From NCBI GenBank assembly GCA_964057225.1, contig OZ059900.1, positions 14,694,001-14,758,000 of the forward strand: 64,000 nt of DNA. Direction: 5' to 3'. Origin of the DNA: Auanema rhodensis (taxonomy: Eukaryota > Animalia > Nematoda). The position numbers and the translations under genes are program-made. Below are positions 1 to 64,000 of this stretch, piece by piece. How positions within the stretch are numbered: the stretch's first letter is position 1; every line of letters starts with the position of its first letter. A model generated the notes under the pieces. That model saw only the letters and a list, made by a program, of their open reading frames with translations, did no database searches and was not told the DNA's origin.

Positions 1-403
1 TGACAGACGCGGATACTCACCACTATACTACCGAGGATTGAATTTGCACTTAGAAACTTTCATTAAGAGTGTGAGTTTGAATTAAAGTAGAAAAATGAAA
101 CACTGTCTCTAACATATCTTGATTTATGGCCTACTTTACCCAAAGAGCTAATTGAAGTTTGGTGTTACAATTAACGATTGATAAACGCTGACGTATCAAT
201 TTTTTTCATCGTAATTAAGATAGAACACTTAAATTAAATAGAAATGTTTGAAAATTTAAAAATAATCACAAGCTCAAATCACTTTTGAAAAAGCAGAAAG
301 TTTAAAACAATCTTTTTTCTAATAATTATCGTTTTTATCCGACTTTTTGAAGAAAACAAAAAAAGCATAACTTTCAATAACGATGAATCAGAACAAAAAC
401 ATT

Positions 404-475
404 CTCCCCGGCCGGGAATTGAACCCGGGTCTCGCATGTGACAGACGCGGATACTCACCACTATACTACCGAGGA
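404..475 (-). tRNA. tRNA-Asp: tRNA-Asp(GTC)
   Basis: Reverse complement of the 72-nt TCCTCGG...CTGTCAC...CCGGGGAG cloverleaf. Confidence 0.96.
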
Positions 476-2159
476 TTGAATTTGCACTTAGAAACTTTCA
501 TTAAGAGTGTGAGTTTGAATTAAAGTAGGAAAATGAAACACTGTCTCTAACATATCTTGTTTTATGGCCTACTTTACACAAAGAGCTAATTGAAGTTTGG
601 TGTTACAATTAACGATTGATAAACGCTGACGTATCAATTTTTTTCATCGTAATTAAGATAGAACACTTAAATTAAATAAAAATGTTTGAAAATTTAAAAA
701 AAATCACAAGCTCAAATCACTTTTGAAAAAGCAGAAAGTTTAAAACAATCTTTTTTCTAATAATTATCGTTTTTATCCGACTTTTTGAAGAAAACAAAAA
801 TAGCATAACATTCAATAACGATGAATCAGAACAAAAACATTCTCCCCGGCCGGGAATTGAACCCGGGTCTCGCATGTGACAGACGCGGATACTCACCACT
901 ATACTACCGAGGATTGAATTTGCACTTAGAAACTTTCATTAAGAGTGTGAGTTTGAATTAAAGTAGAAAAATGAAACACTGTCTCTAACATATCTTGATT
1001 TATGGCCTACTTTACTCAAAGAGCTAATTGAAGTTTGGTGTTACAATTAACGATTGATTAACGCTGACGTTTCAATTTTTTTCATCGTAATTAAGATAGA
1101 ACACTTAAATTATATAGAAATGTTTGAAAATTTAAAAAAAAATAACAAGCTCAAATCACTTTTGAAAAAGCAGAAAGTTTAAAACAATCTTTTTTCTAGT
1201 AATTATCGTTTTTATCCGACTTTTTGAAGAAAACAAAAATAGCATAACATTCAATAACGATGAATCAGAACAAAAACATTCTCCCCGGCCGGGAATTGAA
1301 CCCGGGTCTCGCATGTGACAGACGCGGATACTCACCACTATACTACCGAGGATTGAATTTGCACTCAGAAACTTTCATTAAGAGTGTGAGTTTGAATTAA
1401 AGTAGAAAAATGAAACACTTTCTCTAACATATCTTGATTTATGGCCTACTTTACTCAAAGAGCTAATTGAAGTTTGGTGTTAAAATGAACAATTGATTAA
1501 CGCTGACGTTCCGTTTTTTTTTCATCGTAATTGAGATAGAACATTTAAATTAAATGGAAATGTTTAAAAATTTAGAAAAAAAACACAAGCTCAAACCACT
1601 TTTGAAAAAGCAGAAAGTTTAAAACAATCTTTTTTCTAATAATGATCGTCTTTATCCGATTTTTGGAAAAAAACAAAAATAGCATAACATTCAATAACGA
1701 TGAATCAGAACAAAAACATTCTCCCCGGCCGGGAATTGAACCCGGGTCTCGCATGTGACAGACGCGGATACTCACCACTATACTACCGAGGATTGAATTT
1801 GCACTTAGAAACTTTCATTAAGAGTGTGAGTTTGAATTAAAGTAGAAAAATGAAACACTGTCTCTAACATATCTTGATTTATGGCCTACTTTACTCAAAG
1901 AGCTAATTGAAGTTTGGTGTTACAATTAACGATTGATAAACGCTGACGTATCAATTTTTTTCATCGTAATTAAGATAGAACACTTAAATTAAATAGAAAT
2001 GTTTGAAAATTTAAAAAAAAATCACAAGCTCAAACCACTTTTGAAAAAGCAGAAAGTTTAAAACAATCTTTTTTCTAATAATGATCGTCTTTATCCGACT
2101 TTTTGAAGAAAACAAAAATAGCATAACATTCAATAACGATGAATCAGAACAAAAACATT

Positions 2160-2231
2160 CTCCCCGGCCGGGAATTGAACCCGGGTCTCGCATGTGACAG
2201 ACGCGGATACTCACCACTATACTACCGAGGA
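2160..2231 (-). tRNA. tRNA-Asp: tRNA-Asp(GTC), array gene next to the Ty3/gypsy LTR
   Basis: Same 72-nt cloverleaf; its 5' end is 32 nt from the LTR start. Confidence 0.96.
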
Positions 2232-2263
2232 TTGAATTTGCACTTAGAAACTTTCATTAAGAG

Positions 2264-2621
2264 CGTTCCATTCGAATGATCAATGCATTACATTCATATG
2301 ACGAAGCTGTAGCAGGCGGGTTAGAGTCAGAGAATGCGAGACTGAGAGAAGACGACCCGCCCTTTTCCATATTACAACACTTCAGCTTTGCCTCAGGGAC
2401 GATCATGGATGGTTGGTCGTTCTCTCTCTGTTCTCTATTAGTTTAACCTTTACTTAGTTATATGTATCTTATTGTAATCACGTAGATATAATAAACCAAT
2501 CTTTCTCGAGTCTTATGTTTATCCTTATGCTCCATGTTTAACCGCTACATCTGGAATACTACCACGCTCATCTTGTAGACTCCATTGGTCTGTAAGATCG
2601 ACGCGGGAGCATAACGGAACG
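2264..2621 (+). repeat. 5' LTR (358 bp), termini CGTTCC...GGAACG
   Basis: Starts where array similarity ends; first 34 bp recur right after the PPT; terminal inverted repeat CGTTCCATT/AACGGAACG (8/9); AATAAA at 2490-2495; abuts the PBS. Confidence 0.85.
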
Positions 2622-2634
2622 TGGAGGTTCCACC
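2622..2634 (+). promoter_or_regulatory. Primer-binding site, tRNA-Gln
   Basis: TGGAGGTTCCACC is the complement of the metazoan tRNA-Gln 3' end ...GGTGGAACCT-CCA (tRNA sequence recalled from memory). Confidence 0.85.
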
Positions 2635-4131
2635 TCGAACTTATCACAATTTTTTTTTCTTCCTTCTCTCTAATGTTTGTGTTGTTAATTTATTTTCAAA
2701 TCTCTTTCATCTCTTTTTTTCTCATACCATCTACTCTATGTCTTAACACAATACGGAGGGGCCAACAACGTTAAATGGGAACAGAGGCAAGGAATCCTTT
2801 TTTTTTAAAGAAGGATTATACGTTTCGAGATTATTATTTTCCCGTTTGTTCACAAAAATTCTTTCGTCTGAACCTTTAAATTTCGTATCCTTGCTTATAA
2901 CATCTGAAATGCTCTGTTACCCAACCTTGAAGCTTGATGAGGGCTTTAGGCTGAATTAGTGAACAAATTCACCTAAAGTAATTGTTATTTTGTATTTCCC
3001 ACGCCTTCTCCTTTTTAAGGATTAATTTTGGCTTCAAGGAAAGTATAACTTCGGTTATATCTTTATATTTCGTGGATGAAGTTTGTTTTGCGAATCAGGA
3101 CTATTTTATTTTGCGTTACGATTTCGTTCAGACAAATTTTGCTTCTAACATCCTAAATTTATAATCAGTACGCATGAAAAAAATTACACGGGAAACCTCA
3201 CCAAAAAGGGAGGATTGTTAATTTATAGATCGCTATAGTCCGAAAAATCCTGTTGAAAAATGTTATCTCGAATTTGAATCATGATTAACACAGGTCGTGT
3301 TGGCTAAAGCATATCGGTTTGGATTTTCTCCCCTTACTGAATGTCACCTTCCTCATACCGTTATTGTTGTTCAGAAGCATAAGACTCACGCATTGAACCT
3401 TATTCCAACATTAATACTAGTTCTTGTAATATTTAGCCATTTAACTCTGCTTTTATTTCAAAATTCGATTTCTGATCACGAAATACCTACATTCATCATT
3501 GCGAAACGCTCTTTTGTAAAACTAATATTACGAATCCCATGACTTTTGTTACAACGAAACATGCGAGCTAGACCAAACGTATTTGAAAACCAGATTGTAA
3601 AGAAACAAAAATTATTTTTGGTCACAAAAGAGAAATTGGTGCACATTTATTGTTAAACTGCTCTTTTATCAAAAGCATGTTACGAATTACACCATAAGTT
3701 TTGTTGCAAGATGACACACCACATGGTCGAGAAACTAGTGTAACAAAACATAAGTTTAGTCAGCATGAGGAAAATGGTTGCATACAAATCAGTAAAATGT
3801 GCTGTAATTGAACGAATATTACGAATTACACTAAACGTTTTGTAAAATAACAGCTTGGTCACCCCAGATGTTTTGTGAATCAGATTTTCAACTACAGAGA
3901 AAATACGGAGAGCACCAGAGTCCCGATATCACAGAGTAGAAGGCGGATCCATCGCCATTGGCCAAGGCATCGACCTCATTCTCACAAGTTGTCGATACGA
4001 CACCGGTCGCTCTCCAAAGCCCTTCTCATTTTGCCTACATCCTCATCCTTATTCACCGCATTCTTTAACGTCTCAACATCCCACACGTTACCAAGCACTC
4101 AAGGTTTTTTCAAACCAAGAGTTCTAGCAAG

Positions 4132-5706
4132 GTGGCTAAGAGATTCCATTCAGCCGTACCTATAAGTACGCATTTCGATTCCCAAGACTCAGCTCCCTTT
4201 ACCAGAAGTCGAGCTCGAGCTCAAGACGTCGCTATATTAGAAGAGGAGCAGAAAGTCGACAAGAAGCCGGATAATTTCCTTATTCCTACTACTGATTCTG
4301 TCTCACCTACTGAACAACTAGGCGACCCGGACTACGTACCTACTATAGAAGAAGAACTATCAATCATTGTGGAGGAACAAACACCGATCACTCCTAAAAA
4401 GGTACGCTCCTCTAATTCTAATAAAAATAAGAAAAATCAAAACATCAGCGACGCTTCTCAGTCTCTCTCACTAACCGAACCAACCGATTCCCCTTTACTT
4501 TCAAAAACTTCTAGCGCGGGCGGGCTTAGTTCTCTTAGAAACATTGTTACTGATCTTTTTAACCTTTCGCCTAAAGATAAAACTTTCAACACCAAGCGCA
4601 AAAGCAGATATTCATCAGTCCCTAACATTAATATCTCACCAATTCAACCACCTGCGCTAAATACCAGTATTCATCAAACTTCTACTCCCATCTTAACAAC
4701 AACAGACTCACTTCCTAAGGCACCCAATAGACCTATTCCATCCACGCAAACAACCCCTATTTTGGAGACCCCACCAATAACAGGTAGAACGATCAAAATA
4801 CCATCTACCCGTACAAATAACATCATGACGGAAGCTGTTTCCTCACTACCTGGGGCAGGGAAAACAACAATCGCGCAAGCCTTACTTTGGCCTTACTGTC
4901 CAACTTACGACGGCAGTCGTAACTTCCGTGATTTTACGGGTAAATTCAACTTGTTTGCTAATGCCATTGGCCTTGTTATCCCTAAAAGGTTAGCACTTCT
5001 TCCTTTGCTTCTCAAAAATGAAGCAGCAGAAGAAGCTTACAGACAAGTTCCTGAACAACTTAAAACAACTGGTTCGTGGAATGATCTGATTAGAGCACTA
5101 ACATCGAAGCTCTGCCCTGAATATAACCAAGACCCTGCACTTATTAACCTTCAAAACACCACGCAAGGGGAATTGACAATTGATGCATACGCCCAAGCAT
5201 TAAGAACAATGGCATTGAGTGCATTTGCATCTGATGACCCACATAAAGATCAAATACTGAGATCAACATTCCTCAGAGGACTTAAAAATTCTCTAAAACC
5301 AGCTGTGATCCGAGCAAAGCCAAAATCCTTCACAGAAGCGATTGAAGCAGCTCGCTGGGAGGAATCGATAGTGAACCAAACAACAGACACGCAATCGATG
5401 TTGGTCAACGCTGTGAACAAAGCACTAGCACCCTTTGCGCGTAATGATGAGAGACGAGATAGCCAAACATTTAATCGCAATTATCAACGCGATAACCAAA
5501 TGATAAGAAACAATCAAAATTATCAAAATTATCAAAATTATCAAAAAAATAAAAACTTTTCTAATTTCAATAATAATCGAAACCGTTACGGTTCTTTCGC
5601 TAATAATAATCGCCGTACAAATTATAACGAACAAGATAATAGGCAATCGAGTTCTGATTGGCATCAAAGAAATTATAATTTTCGTCATAACAACCAACGA
5701 GGTTGA
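4132..5706 (+). CDS. gag: Gag region: S/T/P-rich N-terminal extension, retrotransposon capsid domain, N/Q/R-rich tail
   Basis: PTYDG...F..F start of capsid, QGELTIDAYAQAL (MHR-like), FLRGL...PKSFTEAIEAA..EE. True start is uncertain: GTG 4132, first internal ATG 4825. Confidence 0.85.
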   Translation: MAKRFHSAVPISTHFDSQDSAPFTRSRARAQDVAILEEEQKVDKKPDNFLIPTTDSVSPTEQLGDPDYVPTIEEELSIIVEEQTPITPKKVRSSNSNKNKKNQNISDASQSLSLTEPTDSPLLSKTSSAGGLSSLRNIVTDLFNLSPKDKTFNTKRKSRYSSVPNINISPIQPPALNTSIHQTSTPILTTTDSLPKAPNRPIPSTQTTPILETPPITGRTIKIPSTRTNNIMTEAVSSLPGAGKTTIAQALLWPYCPTYDGSRNFRDFTGKFNLFANAIGLVIPKRLALLPLLLKNEAAEEAYRQVPEQLKTTGSWNDLIRALTSKLCPEYNQDPALINLQNTTQGELTIDAYAQALRTMALSAFASDDPHKDQILRSTFLRGLKNSLKPAVIRAKPKSFTEAIEAARWEESIVNQTTDTQSMLVNAVNKALAPFARNDERRDSQTFNRNYQRDNQMIRNNQNYQNYQNYQKNKNFSNFNNNRNRYGSFANNNRRTNYNEQDNRQSSSDWHQRNYNFRHNNQRG

Positions 5707-5814
5707 TTCAATAACAACAACGGACAAAGAAGAGTTCAATTCAAAAATCCAAGAGACAACTCAAGAGGAAGAGATAGAAGCTCAACAAGAATAAACTCTG
5801 TCACTCTTTCGCCT

Positions 5815-8800
5815 TTGACGCTCACAGTTATCATGGCAATAACAGCAGCAATATTCTTGCCCTGTGCATCTACATATCAAATCTGTACAAGAGCAACAGG
5901 AGGCGCATTACTTATGCCACCAACAATCAGAAAATGCAGATTAACAGAGAAAAACCATGTGCTACGTACAGAAGTTCATCTGTACACAAGAAATCACACA
6001 GCACACGAATGGGATGCGTGGCGTTGTTCAGAGGAAGTACACAAGTTATGCGTACGAGACCTGCTATTCCTGCGCGATACGAACAGAACAATAAATAGAA
6101 TACAGCTTATAGGAGAGCGCGAGTGCAGACAGGCAATCCGCGATCGCAAGTGGAATGACATAGAACTGCAACGCATTGATAGTATCACCCAAGCAACTCC
6201 GGAGCCCTCCTATGACCCAGCGCGCGCGTTCAACCGCGACGCGTGCGAGGAGCGGTCACGTCTAATATTAGAGCGCGGAGTCATGACCCGTATGCCTGAC
6301 GATACAATATTGTCAAACTTAATATTAAACACGGAAGGATGCAATGCACATCATGGTAATTGTGAATCAAGTACATCAATAATAATATGGGACCCACAAA
6401 CCACTGCTTCACGTTGTAATTACATCGATATGCATACATATGACGCTATCATTAGTCAAGATACTATTTTAATCCCTAGTACACAATCGGCACTTATTCT
6501 TTCGAGCAAACCAACTCCGAAACCTATTTCTTCTTGCTTCAGGCAGCCAGCGTTCCATACGACATCAGGAAATTATATCATTCTTCCTAAATTTCCAAAC
6601 GACAACAATATAACCACCCTTATTGAAAGAGAGTTCAAAAAGCTGCCGTTTAAAAGACCAAAACGTGCAGTCACCGAAGGATGTTCTTTCCCACTGGATC
6701 AAGATCGGATCAACGAAGTTGAAGATTATGAAACAGTATTGCTTCACGTCTGTCCATATACTTTCCTAAGACCATTAATGAGTAATCCCGGTATTACTTC
6801 AATTATTCCTATAATCAAAGGAAGACGTTTAGTAGATCCAACATACTCTCTAAAGGCATGGATAACATCACATAAAGAAAAATTCGAATTTTTCTTCAGA
6901 ATTCAAATAAATGAACATTCTGTTCGACATTTTCTCAAGTAATACGATTTCAGTGATAAAGAAGAAGCTCTGCTATATTATATAGCACAAAGAGAATTAG
7001 CCATTACTACAAAGGCAGCAATATCATACTTAGCATCTGAACAGCTTCTCGAACAAATATCAGATCGTTTGACAGTAATCGAATTCGATGAAATCATAAG
7101 GAAGAAAGAAGGTTCATATCGCGAACGAATTGAAAGCATAGCTCTCAATTTAACCAATACACCAGTTATAATTGAAGAAGGATTGACAGTTCCATCACGA
7201 CAAGAAGTCCTACAAACGTTCATACAAATGCCACCAATAAGGAAACGTATACTAACTGACGAGGAAGAGAAGAAAAGCGAATTCATTAAAGCAACGATCA
7301 ATTTACTAAGAGAACTAAAAACCCTCACAACAGTACGATGGAATAAAACTGCAGCATTTATTGATGACAGAAAATTTATAAAATTGCCAGCATCACGACA
7401 ATTCATGCCAAATACAGATAAACTATTTTATGACAGGAAGAATAATTATGGAATACCGATCGGTCCACACCCTAAGCTGATCAAGCCCAGCAATCTTTCA
7501 AAGAAATTATTATTGGAAATATTTTTACCCCTGCTCAATAATGTAAAAACACCTTATACATCGAGTAGGATAACACAAGAACAACTTCAAATCTTAATGG
7601 CAGAGAAAAATGAAACAAATTTTCGGCAAATCGCAACGCTGACATCCAGCGTCGCGGCAGGCGGCGCGGCTAGCGGCGCGGTTGTGACACCAGTCCAACC
7701 TTTGATCGAACGGAAGGGAACAATCCAATCAGTTACCACAATATAGCCGCAAATAACGAACAATCCTCACACAAATGCAACAACCACCACAAGAGCACCA
7801 TCATGGAGGCAACAGCCATCAACAACGGCGCCTCACACGACCGCTGCGACAACAGCACGCACAACAACATCAACCGCTCGTTCGCCAACAACAACGAGAA
7901 GCTATGCCATATACAAAGACGCACAGATTCCAAAAATACAAGAGACAACCGAAGCCTCTCCAACATTGATTCGAAAAAACCGAGCTTCCTCAACACCATC
8001 AGTAGAAACCTCAAATTCAGTGGAAGCAAATGCGAGATACATAGCAACGAAAATTGACTCGGTACAAGAGTTTCGTCAAAATATATCGAACAAAATAGCC
8101 CAAGATCATTTACAGTATGCTACTACAATGATCCAAGAGGAATTGCAGAAACATTTTGAAGAATCATACGAATCGATTTGCGAGATACAAAATCGGTATC
8201 TGGAATTATGGAAATCAATTCTACAAATTGAACCAACAATCGCAATGCGAACAATACTGGGAAGAGAAGATATAGCCGCACGGTTTGTAGGCAATGAAAT
8301 TTTGCATATACATGTATGCCCTACAGTGCTAGAGAAAACCATTTATCACAATCACACCGTAAATGGCACATGCTATCTCGAAACCCCAGTCTGGACACAA
8401 GACGGACAGTTACTGTTTGCAGCACCCGGATCCAAGGATCTTTTACCTCATGGTAAAGAAATAAGCTGTGATCACGTACCAACAGATATCTGGTCTAGCG
8501 AAGGTGAATGGAAAGGAATTAATGGGACTGCAAACGTCAATCTTGTATCAATGTGGGACGGACTTCATCACGAAAAAATAACACCATTAAAATTTACCGG
8601 AGCTCACTTATACACTAATTTATCGTCTCGTGTATACTCAATGACCACAGCCATAGCTTACGGTGCGAGTTTAGCATCGATTCGTCAGAATCACGTTCTT
8701 CACACAATTCACAATGATCCAAAGATATCAGCTACATTCAGTGTACTAAAGAAAAGTAGCGACTACATATCGAAAGCTCAAGAATTCACCAAGAGCACAT

Positions 8801-8988
8801 GGAAGTCATTCATCGATACAATTGCAGGAACGATTGAGCGAACACTAATAACTATCGGTGCAATTACATTATTTACCATCATACTCTTTGTGATAGGTTT
8901 CATTGTAAAGATCTATTTCTTCAAACCAGTAGGCATACCAGTTATGCATATTGCACTCAAAGATCACGACAGTGATCTACCAACATAC
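5815..8988 (+). pseudogene. env: Envelope glycoprotein, herpesvirus gB-like class III fusogen, interrupted by TAA 6940-6942 and TAG 7744-7746
   Basis: Signal peptide LTLTVIMAITAAIFLPCAST/YQIC; Cys-rich N-half with NxT/S sequons; RPKR furin site 6655-6666; gB-like core LQY..CEIQN..LW..EP...AARFVGN....C...CY..PV (8107-8469); TM helix 8842-8907. All segments are in one frame. Confidence 0.8.
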
Positions 8989-9129
8989 GAAGAAACTTTG
9001 GAATTAGTTAGTCATCCGGACCAACCGATTCCAAGACACATAATGAAACAATACTATCCATCAATGCTCGCATTCATACCAATCGCACTACCATTAGTTT
9101 GCTCGATTTCCAAAAAGAAAGATCAAGCG

Positions 9130-9510
9130 CTACCACTTCTATGGATGACTGTTAACAATAGACTGATCCTAACTTTATGGGACTCAGGTTCGTCCGTCAG
9201 TTACATAAGAATATCGACACTACACTACTTAGCTTTGAATGACTTTGTTAAGAAGAATACATCAAGAGCAACAACAGCGAACGGATCAGAATTTGTATTC
9301 ATTGGTACTATCGACTTAACCGTCGAAATAGCCGGTTACGAAATCGACCACACATTCTTCATATCAGACGACAAAGACTGTCCATCGCCAGCGTTGATTG
9401 GATTAGGTTTCATGAAAACACTTGACTGTCAAAACATTGGCATGAAACTAAGACCATACAAAAGAACACTGGAAATTGGAAATCATGTAGTACCTTTGGC
9501 TAGCGGAATT
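9130..9510 (+). CDS. pro: Retropepsin aspartic protease domain, in frame directly after the Env TM/tail (part of ORF 7966-9681)
   Basis: LWDSGSSVSYI (DSG at 9181-9189), TANG flap, ALIGLGFM. Boundaries approximate. Confidence 0.9.
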
Positions 9511-9891
9511 AACGGGGATATCAACAGGATATCAAAAACTGTTAATTTGATAACCTTGGAACCGCGGAGTCTACTTCCACGACAAGTTTTTAATTTCCAA
9601 GTCCAATTAGAGAACCCAATCGGAGAAGACTTAACCGCTATGATTAAACCAAACGACAATACACCTCTCTCACCTCGATAAGACACAGCATTTCGCGATG
9701 TTAACTCCATCAATATTCAATTCCGGAACAATTCTAAAGAATTCATAGAAATACCGGCCGGCACTGTAATTGCAGAAGCCGAAATAGGATCTATACCGGA
9801 CTATGAAATCTTCTCAACAGAACAACAGTACGACTATATTCCACCAGAAGCAGACTGGGAAGGCAAATTACCTCACTTCCCTGGTGATTTC

Positions 9892-12828
9892 ATGAAAGAA
9901 CTTGACCTAAAAGAGGCTGATCTCACGCAACGACAAAAAGACGAACTACGAAACATCATTCGTCAACGTAAGAAGGCATTCCTCAATGAAGATAAAAAGA
10001 TAGGATTGTTCAAAGGACCAGTAGAACACAAGATACCACTACGAACGGATATGGATATGCCAAAGCCACGAATTTCACGTATACCTCTCGGGAAAAAGGA
10101 AGAGGTAGAAAGACAAGTCCAAGAAATGCTCGAGCAAGGGATAATAGAACGATCGACATCTTTGTTCAACAGCCCTGTCGTTCTCGTTAGGAAAAAAGAC
10201 GAAACATTCCGTTTCGTTACGGATTTCCGAGCCTTAAATAACGTTACAAGAAAACAAACATATGTGATTCCTAACATCTCTGATATCATTGACTTAGCGG
10301 CTGGATCACAATACTTTTCTAATTTTGATCTTGTTTCTGGCTTTTTCCAAATACCATTATCGAAGAAGGATAGACCACTCACATTCTTTACCACCAATAG
10401 TGGGACTTATCAATACAGGAGAATGCCTATGGGATTATGTGGTGCGCCACATACCTTTCAAACAGCCGTGAGATATCTCCAAAGTAAATGTAAATGCCGA
10501 CTATTTGTCTATTTGGACGATTTACTAGTCATATCAGACAGCGCAGAACAACACCTCGAAGACATCAAAGAAGTATTACTCGCTGTAGAAAGACTAGGAT
10601 TTAAGATTAAACTCAAGAAATGTTCATTTGCAAGACCAGAAGTGAAATTTCTCGGACTCATTGTCGGAAGAGACGGAGTTAAGCCCGATCAACAGAAAGT
10701 TTCCGCCATCCGCGATTACCCTGCTCCTCAAACACCCACAGGAGTAAGAGCATTCTTAGGAATGGTCGGATTCTTTAGAAAATTTATTAAAGATTTTGCA
10801 CATATAGCAAGTCCGCTGTATGACCTTACTAAGCTAGACGCAGACTTCAATTGGACTAGCGAATGTCAACGTTCACTAGATAAGCTAAAGGAACGACTAA
10901 TCGAAGCACCGGTATTGAAACCACCACGATCAGACCGAACTTTCATCATTGAAAGTGATGGCAGCAACATCGCCATAGGCGCAGTATTACTGCAGCCCGA
11001 AGATCCAAACGAACCATTCAAGAACTTACATCCAATTGCTTTCGCAAGTAGGAAATTAGTAAAAGCAGAACGTAACTATGCTCCCATAGAGATAGAAGCC
11101 TTAGGCATAGTTTACACTCTAGCACAGTTTCGAACATACATACTTGGATCACATTCAATTTGCATCACCGATCATCGCCCATTGACAAGCTTACTAACTA
11201 GAAGAGACCTATTTGGAAGACTAGCAAAGTTCCAATTGGTCATACAGGAATACGATATTGAGATCAAATATCGAGAAGGCAGATTAAACAAAGTCTGTGA
11301 CGCACTCTCTAGATACATTGGAGATGAAGCTAACGATCCAAAGACGTCGAACAAGAAACAAAAGACGAATTCGAAAGAGAAAATTGAGACACAACAAGTA
11401 AATGTTGTGAAGTTACCAGAATTCAGCTCAATCCAACAAAATACTCCTTGGATCAAGAGAACAATAGCTGAGATTGAATACAGAACGAAGAAAAATATGA
11501 TTCAAAATGATCGTTATTGTGTTATAAACAACTTACTCTACACAAAACCAAGCGTCAAAAGACCTCATCCAGCGTTAATATTGCCATCGGATAGTGATAT
11601 AATTAACAAAATCATTGAAGAATTTCATGAAGACCCAACAATCGGGGCGCATCAAGGAATCAACAAAACAAAAGAAGCCATATTACGAAGATTTTCCTGG
11701 ACTAACATGCAGAACGACATAGCAAAATACGTAAAACAGTGCATCAAATGTGCACAACGAAAGAAAGATCCTCATGCTATGACCGTACAACCAATGGGTC
11801 AATTTAACATACCAACAAAACCATTTGAGAGAATACATATGGATATCATGGGACCATTCCCAACATCAAAAAGGAACAACAGCTATGTCCTCACAATACA
11901 AGACTCTTTCTCCAAATGGGCTACAACTATCGCCATACCAACAATTGTTAGTGAAGTTGTCATTGATAGATTCCTCAGAAACTTTGTATATGTCTATGGA
12001 CCACCGAACCGCTTAATAACAGACCGCGGTTCCAACTTCCTATCAAGGAAATTTGAAGACATGTGCGAAAAACTCGGTATCAAACATGAATCAACACTCC
12101 CACATCAGAAGAATTCCAATGGACAAGTAGAAAGACTTCATAGAACGTTAGAAGAAGGACTCACACATTATCTCAACGAAGATGTCACTGATTGGGACAT
12201 GTTTTTGCCAAAAATTACCTTTGCATTGAACACCACAACGCATGCAACCACAGGAATATCACCATACGTTGTACTATTCGGGAAAGAAAGCCGTTTGAGA
12301 TTGGATAAAGATTTATACCCCGAAACAACTGAACCAAAGGAAATTTCAAAGGAGATTGAAAATATTGAGAAAATCCGAAGCAAACAGAAAACAATCATTC
12401 AAGAAAAATTGGAAAAGCATCAAGAATTAGCAAAAAAGAAACATGATGCTCGATTACGCACTCACGAAAGAGATATACAAGAAGGAGACTGCGTTATGTT
12501 AGCTGTGAAAATGCACAAGCCAGGACAAAAGCTTCGGAAAGCTTATGATGGACCATTTGAAGTTATTAATGTGAAGGGAAACATGGTTCAAATCAAAAAC
12601 CTTTTGGGAAAGATCCAAGACGTTCACAAGGACAATCTCAAATTATTTAATCGAGAAAAAGATGACGGAATCGCACATAAGCCCAGTACACGTACAGACA
12701 GCTCAGACGATGACAGCGATATCGAAATCATAGAGGTTATCAACGGAAACAACAACGATGAAGACTCTTATGACGAACCAGAAGACCTTTCGGATACAAA
12801 TTGGCTACCATCAAGAAAAAACCATTAA
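9892..12828 (+). CDS. pol: Pol: reverse transcriptase, RNase H, integrase with acidic tail
   Basis: SPVVLVRKKD..RFVTDFR.LN, DL.SGFFQI, MPMGL, YLDD (10510-10521); SDGS..AIGAVL, E.EALG, TDHRPL; H..H..CxxC, HMDIMGP, TDRGSNF, NGQVER, YDGPF. Confidence 0.97.
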   Translation: MKELDLKEADLTQRQKDELRNIIRQRKKAFLNEDKKIGLFKGPVEHKIPLRTDMDMPKPRISRIPLGKKEEVERQVQEMLEQGIIERSTSLFNSPVVLVRKKDETFRFVTDFRALNNVTRKQTYVIPNISDIIDLAAGSQYFSNFDLVSGFFQIPLSKKDRPLTFFTTNSGTYQYRRMPMGLCGAPHTFQTAVRYLQSKCKCRLFVYLDDLLVISDSAEQHLEDIKEVLLAVERLGFKIKLKKCSFARPEVKFLGLIVGRDGVKPDQQKVSAIRDYPAPQTPTGVRAFLGMVGFFRKFIKDFAHIASPLYDLTKLDADFNWTSECQRSLDKLKERLIEAPVLKPPRSDRTFIIESDGSNIAIGAVLLQPEDPNEPFKNLHPIAFASRKLVKAERNYAPIEIEALGIVYTLAQFRTYILGSHSICITDHRPLTSLLTRRDLFGRLAKFQLVIQEYDIEIKYREGRLNKVCDALSRYIGDEANDPKTSNKKQKTNSKEKIETQQVNVVKLPEFSSIQQNTPWIKRTIAEIEYRTKKNMIQNDRYCVINNLLYTKPSVKRPHPALILPSDSDIINKIIEEFHEDPTIGAHQGINKTKEAILRRFSWTNMQNDIAKYVKQCIKCAQRKKDPHAMTVQPMGQFNIPTKPFERIHMDIMGPFPTSKRNNSYVLTIQDSFSKWATTIAIPTIVSEVVIDRFLRNFVYVYGPPNRLITDRGSNFLSRKFEDMCEKLGIKHESTLPHQKNSNGQVERLHRTLEEGLTHYLNEDVTDWDMFLPKITFALNTTTHATTGISPYVVLFGKESRLRLDKDLYPETTEPKEISKEIENIEKIRSKQKTIIQEKLEKHQELAKKKHDARLRTHERDIQEGDCVMLAVKMHKPGQKLRKAYDGPFEVINVKGNMVQIKNLLGKIQDVHKDNLKLFNREKDDGIAHKPSTRTDSSDDDSDIEIIEVINGNNNDEDSYDEPEDLSDTNWLPSRKNH

Positions 12829-13483
12829 CTCATGAGATTTTATTGTAAATTGTTTTGTAATAACTTTCTTTAAAGTAATACTAGAACACAAATTTTGTAA
12901 CGAGTCCTCTAAAACAAGTCACTCTTAAGTCAAAAAGTAAACTAGAGCATAATGAACACGGGAAATGTGAGAAGATAATTCTTTATCATATAGTTCGAAC
13001 CTTCCTAATTTCAACTAACTTCCCCATACTAGATGAGATGAAAAATGAAAGACATAGTTTGCAACAATATCTGAGCAACAGTCTTCACTTGAGTAATCAA
13101 TGACTCAATTTGGAAGTTATTTGGTATTACGCAAAACTTTTCTTTTTTTTTCTAAACTCACACAAATTGAAACAAACAACCGAGCTCTAGCAAAAAAATA
13201 GTTAACTTTTTGTCTACACTTGTTAGAGCGTTATGCTTAGAAACTTTTTTATTATTATTTTATAAGTATATTTTCGCCAATAAAACATAGTCTAGTATTC
13301 GTTAAAGAGGGTTAAAACTTTCATAATTTGGTTAAAAATTTTTTAATTCTTTTCAGATACTGATGTTTTATATTGTATTATGTTCATATTATAAGAATTT
13401 TACGTAAAATATTGTATTGTAACATGTACTTTAATACACACATTAACCCTTCTGCTACAGTTAATCAAGTCAAAACTTTTGAT

Positions 13484-13517
13484 TGTCGCGAGGACGCGAC
13501 ATAAACTCGAAAAAGGG
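13484..13517 (+). promoter_or_regulatory. Pre-PPT hairpin and polypurine tract
   Basis: TGTCGCG-AGGA-CGCGACA stem-loop (GAGGAC-type motif common before Ty3/gypsy PPTs), then GAAAAAGGG at 13509-13517, 2 nt before the 3' LTR start. Confidence 0.8.
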
Positions 13518-13519
13518 CA

Positions 13520-13559
13520 CGTTCCATTCGAATGATCAATGCATTACATTCATGGAACG
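13520..13559 (+). repeat. 3' LTR remnant (34 bp identical to 2264-2297, then GGAACG)
   Basis: CGTTCCATTCGAATGATCAATGCATTACATTCAT is a direct repeat of the 5' LTR start. Confidence 0.85.
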
Positions 13560-50190: not shown

Positions 50191-50496
50191 AATGTTTTTG
50201 TTCTGATTCATCGTTATTGAATGTTATGCTATTTTTGTTTTTTTCCAAAAGTCGGATAAAAAAGATAATTATTAGAAAAAAGGTTGTTTTAAACTTTCTG
50301 TTTTTTCAAAAGTGATTTGAGCTTGTGTTTTTTTTCTAAATTTTTAAACATTTCCATTTAATTTAAATGTTCTATCTCAATTACGATGAAAAAAAAACGG
50401 AACGTCAGCGTTAATCAATTGTTCATTTTAACACCAAACTTCAATTAGCTCTTTGAGTAAAGTAGGCCATAAATCAATATATGTTAGAGACAGTGT

Positions 50497-50528
50497 TGTC
50501 GCGATAAGCGAGTAGGTTTTGTTTTTGT

Positions 50529-50583
<55 letters not shown>

Positions 50584-50835
50584 ATCTCTCTTTATCTCCT
50601 TCCTTTGTAACTAGATCAAAACACATATGCATAACATATGTGTTAACATGTGGCATAAGTAACAGTTTATTTCAGACGACCGCCCAACAACGGAGGACAG
50701 TCTTACATTTTCTACGTTCGCAGTCAGTGATTTTATTCCGTGCTTGTCTTGTTAATTCATCAATAAACCCTTTTCTACATATTTACTTTGTGTTTTACTT
50801 CCAACCATACTATACACTTGTGGTATAACGCCACA
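50497..50835 (+). repeat. LTR (~339 bp), TG...CA
   Basis: Starts TGT at the array break and ends ACA 3 nt before the PBS; contains a polyA signal and a (TC)n tract. Confidence 0.7.
50531..50591 (+). repeat. (TC)n microsatellite inside the LTR
   Basis: More than 20 TC units with occasional TA interruptions. Confidence 0.95.
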
Positions 50836-50838
50836 AAT

Positions 50839-50850
50839 TGGTGCATCGGC
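50839..50850 (+). promoter_or_regulatory. Primer-binding site, tRNA-Gly
   Basis: TGGTGCATCGGC is complementary to the tRNA-Gly(GCC) 3' end ...GCCGATGCA-CCA (recalled). Confidence 0.75.
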
Positions 50851-51123
50851 TAGTTTAGATCTTAGCCGCTTTAAGTCCCGCGTGGCAGGTGAGATACAAC
50901 TCGAACCAAGCGTGTTTGAGCAAAAAACATACTTAATAAAAATCGTGGCGATCATAAGTCCACGTCAAGTCACACCAAACAGACTTGAACAATAAGCAAA
51001 CTCTGAAATTAGAAACAGAGGTTTCAATTTCCTTACGTTCACATATACTGTGATCACCAAACAAACAAAGAAAAAAGAAAACAAAAAAGGAATATAAGCA
51101 TTATTCCTACATCTACAACAAAA

Positions 51124-51606
51124 ATGTCACTCCTTTTTGTCAATCATATGAAACAATCTAACCAGTTTCTTGGAGAACTGCTTACACGATACGAGATGGA
51201 AGTGAAGGACCTTCTTGGTATTCTGGTAGATTGCGACTTCCACACTGAGGAAGAAGAGGAAACCCTCTCTTGCCTTATCATTTGCTGGACAAAAGTCCAA
51301 CACCAATTCAAAGAATCGTTGAAAAATCATCAAGATAACGAGAAAAAATTCCAAAAATTTCACGAAGCATCAGACAAAACGCTTCGTAAAGCATTAGACA
51401 AACAGTACATCGCCTTCACATCCGATGAAGACTTTGAACCCAACATTAAAAAGGTTCAAAACGCCATTATTGAGCTTGACGAACACATCATGAAAGCCGA
51501 ACGCATACTTAACAAAACCTACTCGCTTATCGCGACAACACTGTCTCTAACATATATTGATTTATGGCCTACTTTACTCAAAGAGCTAATTGGAGTTTGG
51601 TGTTAA
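51124..51606 (+). pseudogene. Truncated Gag-like N-terminus (129 codons) reading through into inverted LTR/array sequence
   Basis: AAAAATG start downstream of the PBS; charged, helical/coiled-coil composition; codons from 51511 on come from the inverted LTR fragment and array spacer. Confidence 0.6.
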
Positions 51607-57651: not shown

Positions 57652-59519
57652 CGTTCCATTCGAATGATCAATGCATTACATTCATATGACGAAGCTGTAG
57701 CAGGCGGGTTAGAGTCAGAGAATGCGAGACTGAGAGAAGACGACCCGCCCTTTTCCATATTACAACACTTCAGCTTTGCCTCAGGGACGATCATGGATGG
57801 TTGGTCGTTCTCTCTCTGTTCTCTATTAGTTTAACCTTTACTTAGTTATATGTATCTTATTGTAATCACGTAGATATAATAAACCAATCTTTCTCGAGTC
57901 TTATGTTTATCCTTATGCTCCATGTTTAACCGCTACATCTGGAATACTACCACGCTCATCTTGTAGACTCCATTGGTCTGTAAGATCGACGCGGGAGCAT
58001 AACGGAACGTGGAGGTTCCACCTCGAACTTATCACAATTTTTTTTTCTTCCTTCTCTCTAATGTTTGTGTTGTTAATTTATTTTCAAATCTCTTTCATCT
58101 CTTTTTTTCTCATACCATCTACTCTATGTCTTAACACAATACGGAGGGGCCAACAACGTTAAATGGGAACAGAGGCAAGGAATCCTTTTTTTTTAAAGAA
58201 GGATTATACGTTTCGAGATTATTATTTTCCCGTTTGTTCACAAAAATTCTTTCGTCTGAACCTTTAAATTTCGTATCCTTGCTTATAACATCTGAAATGC
58301 TCTGTTACCCAACCTTGAAGCTTGATGAGGGCTTTAGGCTGAATTAGTGAACAAATTCACCTAAAGTAATTGTTATTTTGTATTTCCCACGCCTTCTCCT
58401 TTTTAAGGATTAATTTTGGCTTCAAGGAAAGTATAACTTCGGTTATATCTTTATATTTCGTGGATGAAGTTTGTTTTGCGAATCAGGACTATTTTATTTT
58501 GCGTTACGATTTCGTTCAGACAAATTTTGCTTCTAACATCCTAAATTTATAATCAGTACGCATGAAAAAAATTACACGGGAAACCTCACCAAAAAGGGAG
58601 GATTGTTAATTTATAGATCGCTATAGTCCGAAAAATCCTGTTGAAAAATGTTATCTCGAATTTGAATCATGATTAACACAGGTCGTGTTGGCTAAAGCAT
58701 ATCGGTTTGGATTTTCTCCCCTTACTGAATGTCACCTTCCTCATACCGTTATTGTTGTTCAGAAGCATAAGACTCACGCATTGAACCTTATTCCAACATT
58801 AATACTAGTTCTTGTAATATTTAGCCATTTAACTCTGCTTTTATTTCAAAATTCGATTTCTGATCACGAAATACCTACATTCATCATTGCGAAACGCTCT
58901 TTTGTAAAACTAATATTACGAATCCCATGACTTTTGTTACAACGAAACATGCGAGCTAGACCAAACGTATTTGAAAACCAGATTGTAAAGAAACAAAAAT
59001 TATTTTTGGTCACAAAAGAGAAATTGGTGCACATTTATTGTTAAACTGCTCTTTTATCAAAAGCATGTTACGAATTACACCATAAGTTTTGTTGCAAGAT
59101 GACACACCACATGGTCGAGAAACTAGTGTAACAAAACATAAGTTTAGTCAGCATGAGGAAAATGGTTGCATACAAATCAGTAAAATGTGCTGTAATTGAA
59201 CGAATATTACGAATTACACTAAACGTTTTGTAAAATAACAGCTTGGTCACCCCAGATGTTTTGTGAATCAGATTTTCAACTACAGAGAAAATACGGAGAG
59301 CACCAGAGTCCCGATATCACAGAGTAGAAGGCGGATCCATCGCCATTGGCCAAGGCATCGACCTCATTCTCACAAGTTGTCGATACGACACCGGTCGCTC
59401 TCCAAAGCCCTTCTCATTTTGCCTACATCCTCATCCTTATTCACCGCATTCTTTAACGTCTCAACATCCCACACGTTACCAAGCACTCAAGGTTTTTTCA
59501 AACCAAGAGTTCTAGCAAG

Positions 59520-61094
59520 GTGGCTAAGAGATTCCATTCAGCCGTACCTATAAGTACGCATTTCGATTCCCAAGACTCAGCTCCCTTTACCAGAAGTCGA
59601 GCTCGAGCTCAAGACGTCGCTATATTAGAAGAGGAGCAGAAAGTCGACAAGAAGCCGGATAATTTCCTTATTCCTACTACTGATTCTGTCTCACCTACTG
59701 AACAACTAGGCGACCCGGACTACGTACCTACTATAGAAGAAGAACTATCAATCATTGTGGAGGAACAAACACCGATCACTCCTAAAAAGGTACGCTCCTC
59801 TAATTCTAATAAAAATAAGAAAAATCAAAACATCAGCGACGCTTCTCAGTCTCTCTCACTAACCGAACCAACCGATTCCCCTTTACTTTCAAAAACTTCT
59901 AGCGCGGGCGGGCTTAGTTCTCTTAGAAACATTGTTACTGATCTTTTTAACCTTTCGCCTAAAGATAAAACTTTCAACACCAAGCGCAAAAGCAGATATT
60001 CATCAGTCCCTAACATTAATATCTCACCAATTCAACCACCTGCGCTAAATACCAGTATTCATCAAACTTCTACTCCCATCTTAACAACAACAGACTCACT
60101 TCCTAAGGCACCCAATAGACCTATTCCATCCACGCAAACAACCCCTATTTTGGAGACCCCACCAATAACAGGTAGAACGATCAAAATACCATCTACCCGT
60201 ACAAATAACATCATGACGGAAGCTGTTTCCTCACTACCTGGGGCAGGGAAAACAACAATCGCGCAAGCCTTACTTTGGCCTTACTGTCCAACTTACGACG
60301 GCAGTCGTAACTTCCGTGATTTTACGGGTAAATTCAACTTGTTTGCTAATGCCATTGGCCTTGTTATCCCTAAAAGGTTAGCACTTCTTCCTTTGCTTCT
60401 CAAAAATGAAGCAGCAGAAGAAGCTTACAGACAAGTTCCTGAACAACTTAAAACAACTGGTTCGTGGAATGATCTGATTAGAGCACTAACATCGAAGCTC
60501 TGCCCTGAATATAACCAAGACCCTGCACTTATTAACCTTCAAAACACCACGCAAGGGGAATTGACAATTGATGCATACGCCCAAGCATTAAGAACAATGG
60601 CATTGAGTGCATTTGCATCTGATGACCCACATAAAGATCAAATACTGAGATCAACATTCCTCAGAGGACTTAAAAATTCTCTAAAACCAGCTGTGATCCG
60701 AGCAAAGCCAAAATCCTTCACAGAAGCGATTGAAGCAGCTCGCTGGGAGGAATCGATAGTGAACCAAACAACAGACACGCAATCGATGTTGGTCAACGCT
60801 GTGAACAAAGCACTAGCACCCTTTGCGCGTAATGATGAGAGACGAGATAGCCAAACATTTAATCGCAATTATCAACGCGATAACCAAATGATAAGAAACA
60901 ATCAAAATTATCAAAATTATCAAAATTATCAAAAAAATAAAAACTTTTCTAATTTCAATAATAATCGAAACCGTTACGGTTCTTTCGCTAATAATAATCG
61001 CCGTACAAATTATAACGAACAAGATAATAGGCAATCGAGTTCTGATTGGCATCAAAGAAATTATAATTTTCGTCATAACAACCAACGAGGTTGA
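59520..61094 (+). CDS. gag: Gag region, copy 2
   Basis: Protein identical to 4132-5706. Confidence 0.85.
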   Translation: MAKRFHSAVPISTHFDSQDSAPFTRSRARAQDVAILEEEQKVDKKPDNFLIPTTDSVSPTEQLGDPDYVPTIEEELSIIVEEQTPITPKKVRSSNSNKNKKNQNISDASQSLSLTEPTDSPLLSKTSSAGGLSSLRNIVTDLFNLSPKDKTFNTKRKSRYSSVPNINISPIQPPALNTSIHQTSTPILTTTDSLPKAPNRPIPSTQTTPILETPPITGRTIKIPSTRTNNIMTEAVSSLPGAGKTTIAQALLWPYCPTYDGSRNFRDFTGKFNLFANAIGLVIPKRLALLPLLLKNEAAEEAYRQVPEQLKTTGSWNDLIRALTSKLCPEYNQDPALINLQNTTQGELTIDAYAQALRTMALSAFASDDPHKDQILRSTFLRGLKNSLKPAVIRAKPKSFTEAIEAARWEESIVNQTTDTQSMLVNAVNKALAPFARNDERRDSQTFNRNYQRDNQMIRNNQNYQNYQNYQKNKNFSNFNNNRNRYGSFANNNRRTNYNEQDNRQSSSDWHQRNYNFRHNNQRG

Positions 61095-61202
61095 TTCAAT
61101 AACAACAACGGACAAAGAAGAGTTCAATTCAAAAATCCAAGAGACAACTCAAGAGGAAGAGATAGAAGCTCAACAAGAATAAACTCTGTCACTCTTTCGC
61201 CT

Positions 61203-64000
61203 TTGACGCTCACAGTTATCATGGCAATAACAGCAGCAATATTCTTGCCCTGTGCATCTACATATCAAATCTGTACAAGAGCAACAGGAGGCGCATTACT
61301 TATGCCACCAACAATCAGAAAATGCAGATTAACAGAGAAAAACCATGTGCTACGTACAGAAGTTCATCTGTACACAAGAAATCACACAGCACACGAATGG
61401 GATGCGTGGCGTTGTTCAGAGGAAGTACACAAGTTATGCGTACGAGACCTGCTATTCCTGCGCGATACGAACAGAACAATAAATAGAATACAGCTTATAG
61501 GAGAGCGCGAGTGCAGACAGGCAATCCGCGATCGCAAGTGGAATGACATAGAACTGCAACGCATTGATAGTATCACCCAAGCAACTCCGGAGCCCTCCTA
61601 TGACCCAGCGCGCGCGTTCAACCGCGACGCGTGCGAGGAGCGGTCACGTCTAATATTAGAGCGCGGAGTCATGACCCGTATGCCTGACGATACAATATTG
61701 TCAAACTTAATATTAAACACGGAAGGATGCAATGCACATCATGGTAATTGTGAATCAAGTACATCAATAATAATATAGGACCCACAAACCACTGCTTCAC
61801 GTTGTAATTACATCGATATGCATACATATGACGCTATCATTAGTCAAGATACTATTTTAATCCCTAGTACACAATCGGCACTTATTCTTTCGAGCAAACC
61901 AACTCCGAAACCTATTTCTTCTTGCTTCAGGCAGCCAGCGTTCCATACGACATCAGGAAATTATATCATTCTTCCTAAATTTCCAAACGACAACAATATA
62001 ACCACCCTTATTGAAAGAGAGTTCAAAAAGCTGCCGTTTAAAAGACCAAAACGTGCAGTCACCGAAGGATGTTCTTTCCCACTGGATCAAGATCGGATCA
62101 ACGAAGTTGAAGATTATGAAACAGTATTGCTTCACGTCTGTCCATATACTTTCCTAAGACCATTAATGAGTAATCCCGGTATTACTTCAATTATTCCTAT
62201 AATCAAAGGAAGACGTTTAGTAGATCCAACATACTCTCTAAAGGCATGGATAACATCACATAAAGAAAAATTCGAATTTTTCTTCAGAATTCAAATAAAT
62301 GAACATTCTGTTCGACATTTTCTCAAGTAATACGATTTCAGTGATAAAGAAGAAGCTCTGCTATATTATATAGCACAAAGAGAATTAGCCATTACTACAA
62401 AGGCAGCAATATCATACTTAACATCTGAACAGCTTCTCGAACAAATATCAGATCGTTTGACAGTAATCGAATTCGATGAAATCATAAGGAAGAAAGAAGG
62501 TTCATATCGCGAACGAATTGAAAGCATAGCTCTCAATTTAACCAATACACCAGTTATAATTGAAGAAGGATTGACAGTTCCATCACGACAAGAAGTCCTA
62601 CAAACGTTCATACAAATGCCACCAATAAGGAAACGTATACTAACTGACGAGGAAGAGAAGAAAAGCGAATTCATTAAAGCAACGATCAATTTACTAAGAG
62701 AACTAAAAACCCTCACAACAGTACGATGGAATAAAACTGCAGCATTTATTGATGACAGAAAATTTATAAAATTGCCAGCATCACGACAATTCATGCCAAA
62801 TACAGATAAACTATTTTATGACAGGAAGAATAATTATGGAATACCGATCGGTCCACACCCTAAGCTGATCAAGCCCAGCAATCTTTCAAAGAAATTATTA
62901 TTGGAAATATTTTTACCCCTGCTCAATAATGTAAAAACACCTTATACATCGAGTAGGATAACACAAGAACAACTTCAAATCTTAATGGCAGAGAAAAATG
63001 AAACAAATTTTCGGCAAATCGCAACGCTGACATCCAGCGTCGCGGCAGGCGGCGCGGCTAGCGGCGCGGTTGTGACACCAGTCCAACCTTTGATCGAACG
63101 GAAGGGAACAATCCAATCAGTTACCACAATACAGCCGCAAATAACGAACAATCCTCACACAAATGCAACAACCACCACAAGAGCACCATCATGGAGGCAA
63201 CAGCCATCAACAACGGCGCCTCACACGACCGCTGCGACAACAGCACGCACAACAACATCAACCGCTCGTTCGCCAACAACAACGAGAAGCTATGCCATAT
63301 ACAAAGACGCACAGATTCCAAAAATACAAGAGACAACCGAAGCCTCTCCAACATTGATTCGAAAAAACCGAGCTTCCTCAACACCATCAGTAGAAACCTC
63401 AAATTCAGTGGAAGCAAATGCGAGATACATAGCAACGAAAATTGACTCGGTACAAGAGTTTCGTCAAAATATATCGAACAAAATAGCCCAAGATCATTTA
63501 CAGTATGCTACTACAATGATCCAAGAGGAATTGCAGAAACATTTTGAAGAATCATACGAATCGATTTGCGAGATACAAAATCGGTATCTGGAATTATGGA
63601 AATCAATTCTACAAATTGAACCAACAATCGCAATGCGAACAATACTGGGAAGAGAAGATATAGCCGCACGGTTTGTAGGCAATGAAATTTTGCATATACA
63701 TGTATGCCCTACAGTGCTAGAGAAAACCATTTATCACAATCACACCGTAAATGGCACATGCTATCTCGAAACCCCAGTCTGGACACAAGACGGACAGTTA
63801 CTGTTTGCAGCACCCGGATCCAAGGATCTTTTACCTCATGGTAAAGAAATAAGCTGTGATCACGTACCAACAGATATCTGGTCTAGCGAAGGTGAATGGA
63901 AAGGAATTAATGGGACTGCAAACGTCAATCTTGTATCAATGTGGGACGGACTTCATCACGAAAAAATAACACCATTAAAATTTACCGGAGCTCACTTATA
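61203..64000 (+). pseudogene. env: gB-like env, copy 2 (partial); stops at 61776-61778 and 62328-62330, then open to the window end
   Basis: TGG>TAG is unique to this copy; CAG at 63132 where copy 1 has TAG. Confidence 0.8.

Follow-up and report, generated by a model that had tools for sequence, protein, structure and literature searches.

The stretch analysed here (the window) comprises 64,000 nucleotides of Auanema rhodensis (assembly GCA_964057225.1, contig OZ059900.1, positions 14,694,001–14,758,000). At 2264–13553 it contains what is very probably a broken copy of a Ty3/gypsy retroelement of the long terminal repeat (LTR) type with a capsid, a predicted fusogen of the herpesvirus glycoprotein B (gB) type and enzymes in one frame, whose intact relatives likely make a single membrane-threaded polyprotein. 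The frame runs through the capsid, an internal signal, a gB-type Env, one transmembrane (TM) helix, protease (PR), reverse transcriptase (RT), RNase H (RH) and integrase (IN). The parts of the element are as follows:

2264–2621, plus strand: probable 5' LTR, 358 bp, CGTTCC...GGAACG (ends CG...CG, not TG...CA); the flanking array ends at 2263, the first 34 bp recur after the polypurine tract and the primer site adjoins
2622–2633, plus strand: primer binding site (PBS), transfer RNA (tRNA)-Gln type, exact complement of a listed 12-mer
4069–4824, plus strand: S/T/P-rich open frame of 252 codons, no ATG, in frame with Gag, recognised against shuffled sequence
4825–5403, plus strand: Gag capsid region from the first in-frame ATG (Retrotrans_gag 4e-6; Ty3_capsid 2e-5, below cut-off)
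5404–5793, plus strand: Gag tail rich in N/R/Q (Asn 26%) and without a CCHC knuckle, holding the stop 5704–5706
5815–5874, plus strand: internal signal-like segment from hydropathy, putatively cleaved, with a counterpart in 16 of 16 relatives
5875–6666, plus strand: N-terminal part of Env, modelled gB domain I/II fold, 10 Cys, ending in a furin-like RPKR at 6655–6666
6667–8022, plus strand: Env insert of about 450 residues, partly helical, then T/S-rich and mucin-like, stops at 6940–6942 and 7744–7746
8023–8838, plus strand: C-terminal part of Env, long central helix and domain IV/V region (PF24664 2e-13, PF00606 3e-9; PDB gB profile)
8848–8904, plus strand: single TM helix, from hydropathy
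8905–9144, plus strand: tail of about 80 residues with a hydrophobic proline-rich motif at its end, common to four close relatives
9145–9417, plus strand: aspartyl protease (Pfam), DSG at 9181; a later stop at 9679–9681
10186–11253, plus strand: RT (YLDD at 10510) and RNase H (Pfam)
11593–12828, plus strand: integrase (HHCC and core, Pfam) to the terminal stop
13509–13517, plus strand: polypurine-tract-like run, assigned by position, 2 nt before the LTR stub
13520–13553, plus strand: 3' LTR stub, limited to the initial 34 bp, after which the tRNA array follows in opposite orientation

Translation of 4132–12828 with the standard code gave internal stops only at 5704, 6940, 7744 and 9679, and the frame from 4069 to 12825 holds four stops in 2,919 codons against 112–218 in each of the other five frames. 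An earlier sequence-only reading of this DNA had joined five open reading frames (ORFs) into a single one of about 2,900 codons: the common frame and the claimed domain order were borne out by translation, Pfam and hydropathy, but the four stops make this an interrupted frame rather than an ORF. The start placed at 4132 had to be abandoned, since GTG is unlikely as a eukaryotic start; the open frame reaches back to 4069, and its first ATG stands at 4825. Pfam searches of the five open stretches found Retrotrans_gag (4e-6) first; then, within the single open stretch 7747–9681, Monjiviricetes_fusion (2e-13), Glycoprotein_B (3e-9, short of the curated cut-off) and the aspartyl protease (8e-7), with the TM helix in the same stretch, so that the claimed passage from Env through the TM helix into the protease is indeed unbroken; and downstream RT (3e-31), RNase H (1e-28) and integrase (5e-16). 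The order of these matches and the models also upheld the assignment of a Ty3/gypsy-type Pol. The BEL/Pao markers Peptidase_A17, DUF1759 and DUF5641 were absent from the five stretches at E up to 1, and the chain does not qualify as BEL/Pao (Belpaoviridae). The copy has neither the unbroken frame nor the two full LTRs of an intact element and, because of its four stops and the truncated 3' LTR, it cannot make the chain.

The leader at 4069–4824 contains no stop, while none of 2000 shuffles was stop-free (mean 12.6 stops). Lacking an ATG, it may depend on initiation at a non-AUG codon or on a leader exon joined by splicing; no splice acceptor of the form TT[TC]CAG was present within 2622–4830, and nothing bearing on such a leader was found in the accessible part of the Cer1 paper (PMC10309623).

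For searches, the two stops in Env were replaced with X and the sequence was read across them. Built from 110 aligned sequences, a profile matched 70 PDB sequences; among the 60 of these that were listed, herpesvirus gB chains took the first 54 places (best E 8e-17), followed by rhabdovirus-type glycoproteins, rabies G appearing at E ~1e-5. An AlphaFold2 model based on 101 sequences (mean predicted local distance difference test score, pLDDT, 63.6; predicted template modelling score, pTM, 0.46) was confident at residues 1–250 and 715–890 and poor across most of the insert. In Foldseek, the leading PDB match was gB (E 6e-10), and the top-ranked matches in BFVD were rhabdo-, nyami- and chu-like glycoproteins together with gB. 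Elements described from nematodes by Sacco et al. in 2022 are said to carry a continuous gag-env-pro-pol ORF with a nyamivirus-like glycoprotein, and nyamivirus glycoproteins are among the BFVD matches here. With VIA-align, Z against gB was 9.3–10.9 in all 50 matches listed: prefusion-type gB chains were superimposed over 350–362 residues (Z 10.2–10.5, root mean square deviation, rmsd, 5.0–5.1), postfusion chains gave an rmsd near 40, and model residues 27–246 matched gB of Epstein-Barr virus and human cytomegalovirus over 209–215 residues (Z 10.5–10.7, rmsd 5.8–6.8). From the profile matches, the model, Foldseek and VIA-align to gB, the Env is assigned a predicted class III fold, and a fusogen is predicted. 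The claim that a gB-like fusogen of class III lies between Gag and protease and shares their frame thus held in Pfam, in the PDB profile search and in the predicted model, including the AlphaFold2 and Foldseek check that had been proposed for it.

The ectodomain of about 990 residues, described as Cys-rich in the sequence-only reading, needs amendment: about 450 of them form an insert without gB likeness that holds only 2 of the 16 Cys. The two Env halves are 692 residues apart, compared with 206–589 in the 74 proteins in which both halves could be placed, and the loop insert is the longest among the 75 proteins compared. It is marked by low pLDDT and by a T/S-rich composition at its end. Parts of it have homologues in a few relatives, two of them from Auanema sp. 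JU1783, the source also of the closest Env piece among the matches (60% identity). A search of the ESM Atlas with 6943–7743 gave no usable match, which shows neither novelty nor absence.

A search with Env among 1.84 billion representatives gave 268 matches at E <=0.001. Among 268 proteins retrieved, BLASTP to the window chain showed Env joined to Gag and/or Pol in 65, and the order gag-env-PR-RT-IN is kept in all 65, with all six marked regions present in 8; this count is blind to BEL/Pao proteins, whose Pol does not align. All four long Env matches tested were BEL/Pao proteins, with Peptidase_A17, DUF1759 and DUF5641 and a related Env after the integrase. The gene therefore moves between elements, and this speaks for the possibility that Env is an unrelated nested insertion, in frame by chance and without a role in the element cycle. 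The position, signal and TM helix of Env are, however, kept across nematode and metagenome relatives at 20–40% identity, and the layout has been published as recurrent (accessible text of PMC13524379), which makes a nested insertion extremely improbable.

The predicted topology of the chain, with Env led in by the internal signal and Pol returned to the cytosol by the TM helix, was the second claim that relatives could speak to. The whole window chain has only two strongly hydrophobic segments, the signal-like 5815–5871 and the TM helix 8848–8904, and a signal-like segment plus one TM helix (hydropathy >=2.0) was found in 16 of the 16 proteins that hold Gag, both Env halves and the protease in one chain; the maxima in these proteins reach 1.41 in the ectodomain and 1.76 in Pol. 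Hydropathy is consistent with this topology throughout, and a one-chain Gag-Env-Pol topology is highly probable on such sequence features. The hydrophobic proline-rich motif before the protease (9040–9110) ends in P-L-x-C and is kept in four close relatives; it could be a protease release site or a membrane contact. A furin-like site was found in 10 of the 16 proteins, the other six having no R-x-K/R-R in the loop. The latter fits an Env kept as a membrane anchor, for assembly at the endoplasmic reticulum (ER) or particle movement in the syncytial gonad, instead of for cell-to-cell infection, as does the statement in the accessible text of PMC13524379 that Env transmission outside Drosophila is unknown. 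The fusion-domain fold and the cysteines are nevertheless kept, beyond the needs of an anchor, and a mere anchor is considered unlikely.

In its RT-RNase H the window chain is 57–62% identical to five Caenorhabditis proteins and one Diploscapter protein, all with env before pol. In the tree it is sister to the five Caenorhabditis proteins and groups with the env-before-pol set at a Shimodaira–Hasegawa-like approximate likelihood ratio (SH-aLRT) support of 97; the tree was a quick search with the 44 best of 118 relatives, free of reference gypsy or BEL rows and of sequences from PMC13524379. Pol thus groups with nematode env-before-pol elements and, because of this likeness and tree position, the element probably comes from a rhabditid nematode. 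For several relatives, the JGI or Logan contig of origin scarcely exceeds the length needed to encode the protein, and these are therefore taken as unspliced frames. The long relatives P0028, P0029, P0032 and P0059 have two or three protease-like motifs per chain.

The ends of the element add to the earlier anatomy, as do the PBS, the tRNA-gene array and a second copy at 57652–64000. An LTR with a tRNA primer site is represented by the 5' LTR, the Gln-type PBS, the polypurine-tract-like run and the 34-bp 3' stub. That 2264–2621 is an LTR with CG...CG ends is probable because of the 34-bp recurrence, the adjoining PBS and contigs from other sequencing runs: in run X2 a contig joins 13519 to 2264 and continues as far as 2553, and contigs from both X2 and X5 track the LTR up to 2621 before passing into other sequence. 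If two further bases are counted at each LTR end, the inverted repeat reaches 8 bp, as would be consistent with the removal of two bases by the integrase. At the element ends no target-site duplication was visible, and this test therefore leaves the boundary unproven. Two other boundaries were tried and rejected: an LTR from TG at 2308 to CA near 2550, given the PBS at 2622 and the loss of the T at 2308 in other runs' contigs, and a second LTR ending at the 3' junction, since 26 array units carry identical letters there. Literature searches for CG-ended LTRs, including nematodes, gave nothing on point, a weak negative in that few subscription papers were covered. Departures from TG...CA are already known, because the LTR ends of Drosophila errantiviruses are AGT...AnT (Nefedova and Kim, accessible text of PMC5408687). 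The 12-mer to which the PBS is complementary is given for two published nematode elements, C. latens element 4 and C. tropicalis element 1 (supp1 of PMC13524379, rows accessible). In the contigs of other runs the bin 2264–2621 has a far higher depth and several variant forms compared with the internal part; the tRNA array accounts for this in part, and many solo LTRs or sister subfamilies possibly contribute.

Most of the window outside the element is a tandem tRNA-Asp(GTC) array, with the second copy at its end:

1–2263, minus strand: tandem tRNA-Asp(GTC) array, ~438-bp unit, left flank
13554–50493, plus strand: tandem tRNA-Asp array, right flank
57652–64000, plus strand: second element copy, cut by the window end, same left junction

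The array has 103 genes in the window, 84 of them on the plus strand, in ~438-bp units 95–100% alike; a reading of the repeat as a satellite was rejected in favour of the tRNA-Asp gene array. Its orientation flips at each inserted piece of an LTR element (2264–13553 and ~50494–51540). The second flip holds an unrelated LTR-element fragment (50494–51606) with a TG-starting LTR-like segment, a PBS-like 12-mer at 50839, presumably of tRNA-Gly type and BEL/Pao-like, and a cut-off frame of 197 residues without significant Pfam match; about 21 bp of its start are inverted at 51520–51540, as from a fold-back. The LTR of the main element starts 32 bp upstream of the nearest tRNA gene (2231–2160), which points away from it. 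One insertion site in an array occupying the greater part of the window gives no evidence for tRNA targeting, and homing of the element just upstream of tRNA genes in germline-restricted arrays is doubtful. Such arrays were reported for Auanema rhodense, with 19,554 tRNA genes as well as tandem arrays of tRNA genes in germline-restricted DNA (accessible part of 10.64898/2026.08.27.747507), the same kind of context as here.

The second copy differs from the first at 3 positions in 6,612 bp, one stop being private to each copy, and a 55,388-bp higher-order duplication repeats the element with its left flank. It is a block duplication and not a second insertion, because it has the same left junction and so few differences. 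The stretch or part of it was present in 11 of 14 listed sequencing runs from three studies. The four runs compared had long contigs about 1% different from the window, and because the contigs of every one of these runs depart from the window at stops 6940 and 7744, these represent decay of the window copy, and sister copies in a better state likely exist. Each stop is spanned by unbroken relatives (5704 by 31, 6940 by 4, 7744 by 1 and 9679 by 65 proteins). The stop at 5704, in the Gag tail, is present in both window copies and usefully located; as a leaky programmed stop it would yield Gag and a rarer Gag-Env-Pol, thereby settling the stoichiometry by an excess of Gag as in murine leukaemia virus. 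It is also not among the 40 differences listed for other runs, although this absence carries no weight. To our knowledge, its context is not a read-through context. With 31 unbroken relatives across it and three other stops showing general decay, a leaky stop is quite improbable.

The gene order itself, whose novelty the sequence-only reading had implied, is already published. According to the accessible text of Chary and Hayashi (eLife 2026, PMC13524379), 'errantiviruses' of Nematoda, Bryozoa and Platyhelminthes carry a gB-type Env as GAG-ENV-POL, the nematode case being credited to Sacco 2022 (doi 10.1099/jgv.0.001739), whose elements have a flipped ENV-POL order. The window element resembles theirs in gene order, gB-type Env, Ty3/gypsy Pol and range of LTR length, and it shows the traits of that class examined here: a Ty3/gypsy Pol with PR-RT-RH-IN, Env between gag and pol, and a gB ectodomain flanked by a signal/TM segment and a TM helix. 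Of the 36 nematode rows in supp1, 30 were covered, none of these 30 from Auanema, and 8 of them likewise have a tRNA-Gln PBS. In contrast to the description of their elements, the window copy is broken. The main text, as far as accessible, does not contain 'polyprotein', 'fused', 'in-frame' or 'single ORF', and no LTR end letters, Env insert of ~450 residues or tRNA-array insertion were found in the accessible parts. Env-bearing BEL/Pao elements, among them Atlas (PMC9094657), likewise make one long polyprotein, and some carry an Env related to that of the window, but they place it after the integrase, and the window chain is without their Pfam markers. The Env of Atlas elements is phlebovirus-like and class II as opposed to class III here. 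The Drosophila errantiviruses gypsy, ZAM and Idefix are Ty3/gypsy elements with env whose LTR ends also depart from TG...CA (PMC5408687, accessible text), albeit with a separate env after pol, an F-type fusogen and ends different from the CG...CG of the window. With the GAG-ENV-POL order known, the window element is a new family of that kind. Its details not found in print are the CG...CG LTR of 358 bp, the insert of ~450 residues after a furin-like site, the ATG-less leader of 252 codons and the position 32 bp upstream of a tRNA-Asp gene.

For an intact element we envisage the following cycle, in which the order, frame, hydrophobic segments, fold class, LTR and PBS are observed and the steps follow what is generally known of how signal and stop-transfer sequences and viral polyproteins behave. 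Gag would be made in the cytosol; the internal signal would send Env into the ER and be cut by signal peptidase, Gag remaining anchored until trimmed; Env would be cut at the furin-like site and then trimerise; and the single TM helix would stop transfer, leaving the tail with PR-RT-IN cytosolic. Clustering on Env tails may let the protease dimerise and free the enzymes into a particle budding with its own fusogen, so that any tethering of Pol to the membrane would likely end with its release by the protease. The cDNA would be primed by tRNA-Gln and integrated via CG-3' ends. In this reading the window copy decayed by nonsense changes, an inversion of the tRNA array took away the greater part of its 3' LTR, and the copy was later duplicated with 55.4 kb of flank. 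Several points weigh against the one-frame, membrane-threaded reading: the confidence of the Env model is moderate (394 of 1011 residues with pLDDT <50) and Foldseek whole-chain TM-scores are low (0.09–0.18); the topology is derived from hydropathy instead of SignalP or DeepTMHMM predictions; a single chain gives Gag:Env:Pol of 1:1:1, odd for a particle; the relatives' tree is the quick search of 44 of 118 described above; and many relatives are automated gene models that possibly hide splicing, P0005 and P0131 being near-copies.

A broader reading, about evenly balanced between right and wrong in our estimate, is that of a young nematode gag-env-pol lineage whose integrase joins CG-3' rather than CA-3' ends (a cDNA with symmetric ends CACGTTCC...GGAACGTG trimmed by 2 bases), in which the one-chain polyprotein employs the internal signal and Env trimers both to hold its protease and to switch it on, the Env insert might have a lineage-specific host-binding or shielding role, and the element possibly homes just upstream of tRNA genes. 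If the CG-3' part is true, LTR finders based on TG...CA would miss such elements. The family brings probable LTR ends departing from the TG...CA rule together with the longest Env loop insert among 75 proteins, and the signal and single TM helix in 16 of 16 relatives provide a testable topology for how one chain may give capsid, fusogen and enzymes.

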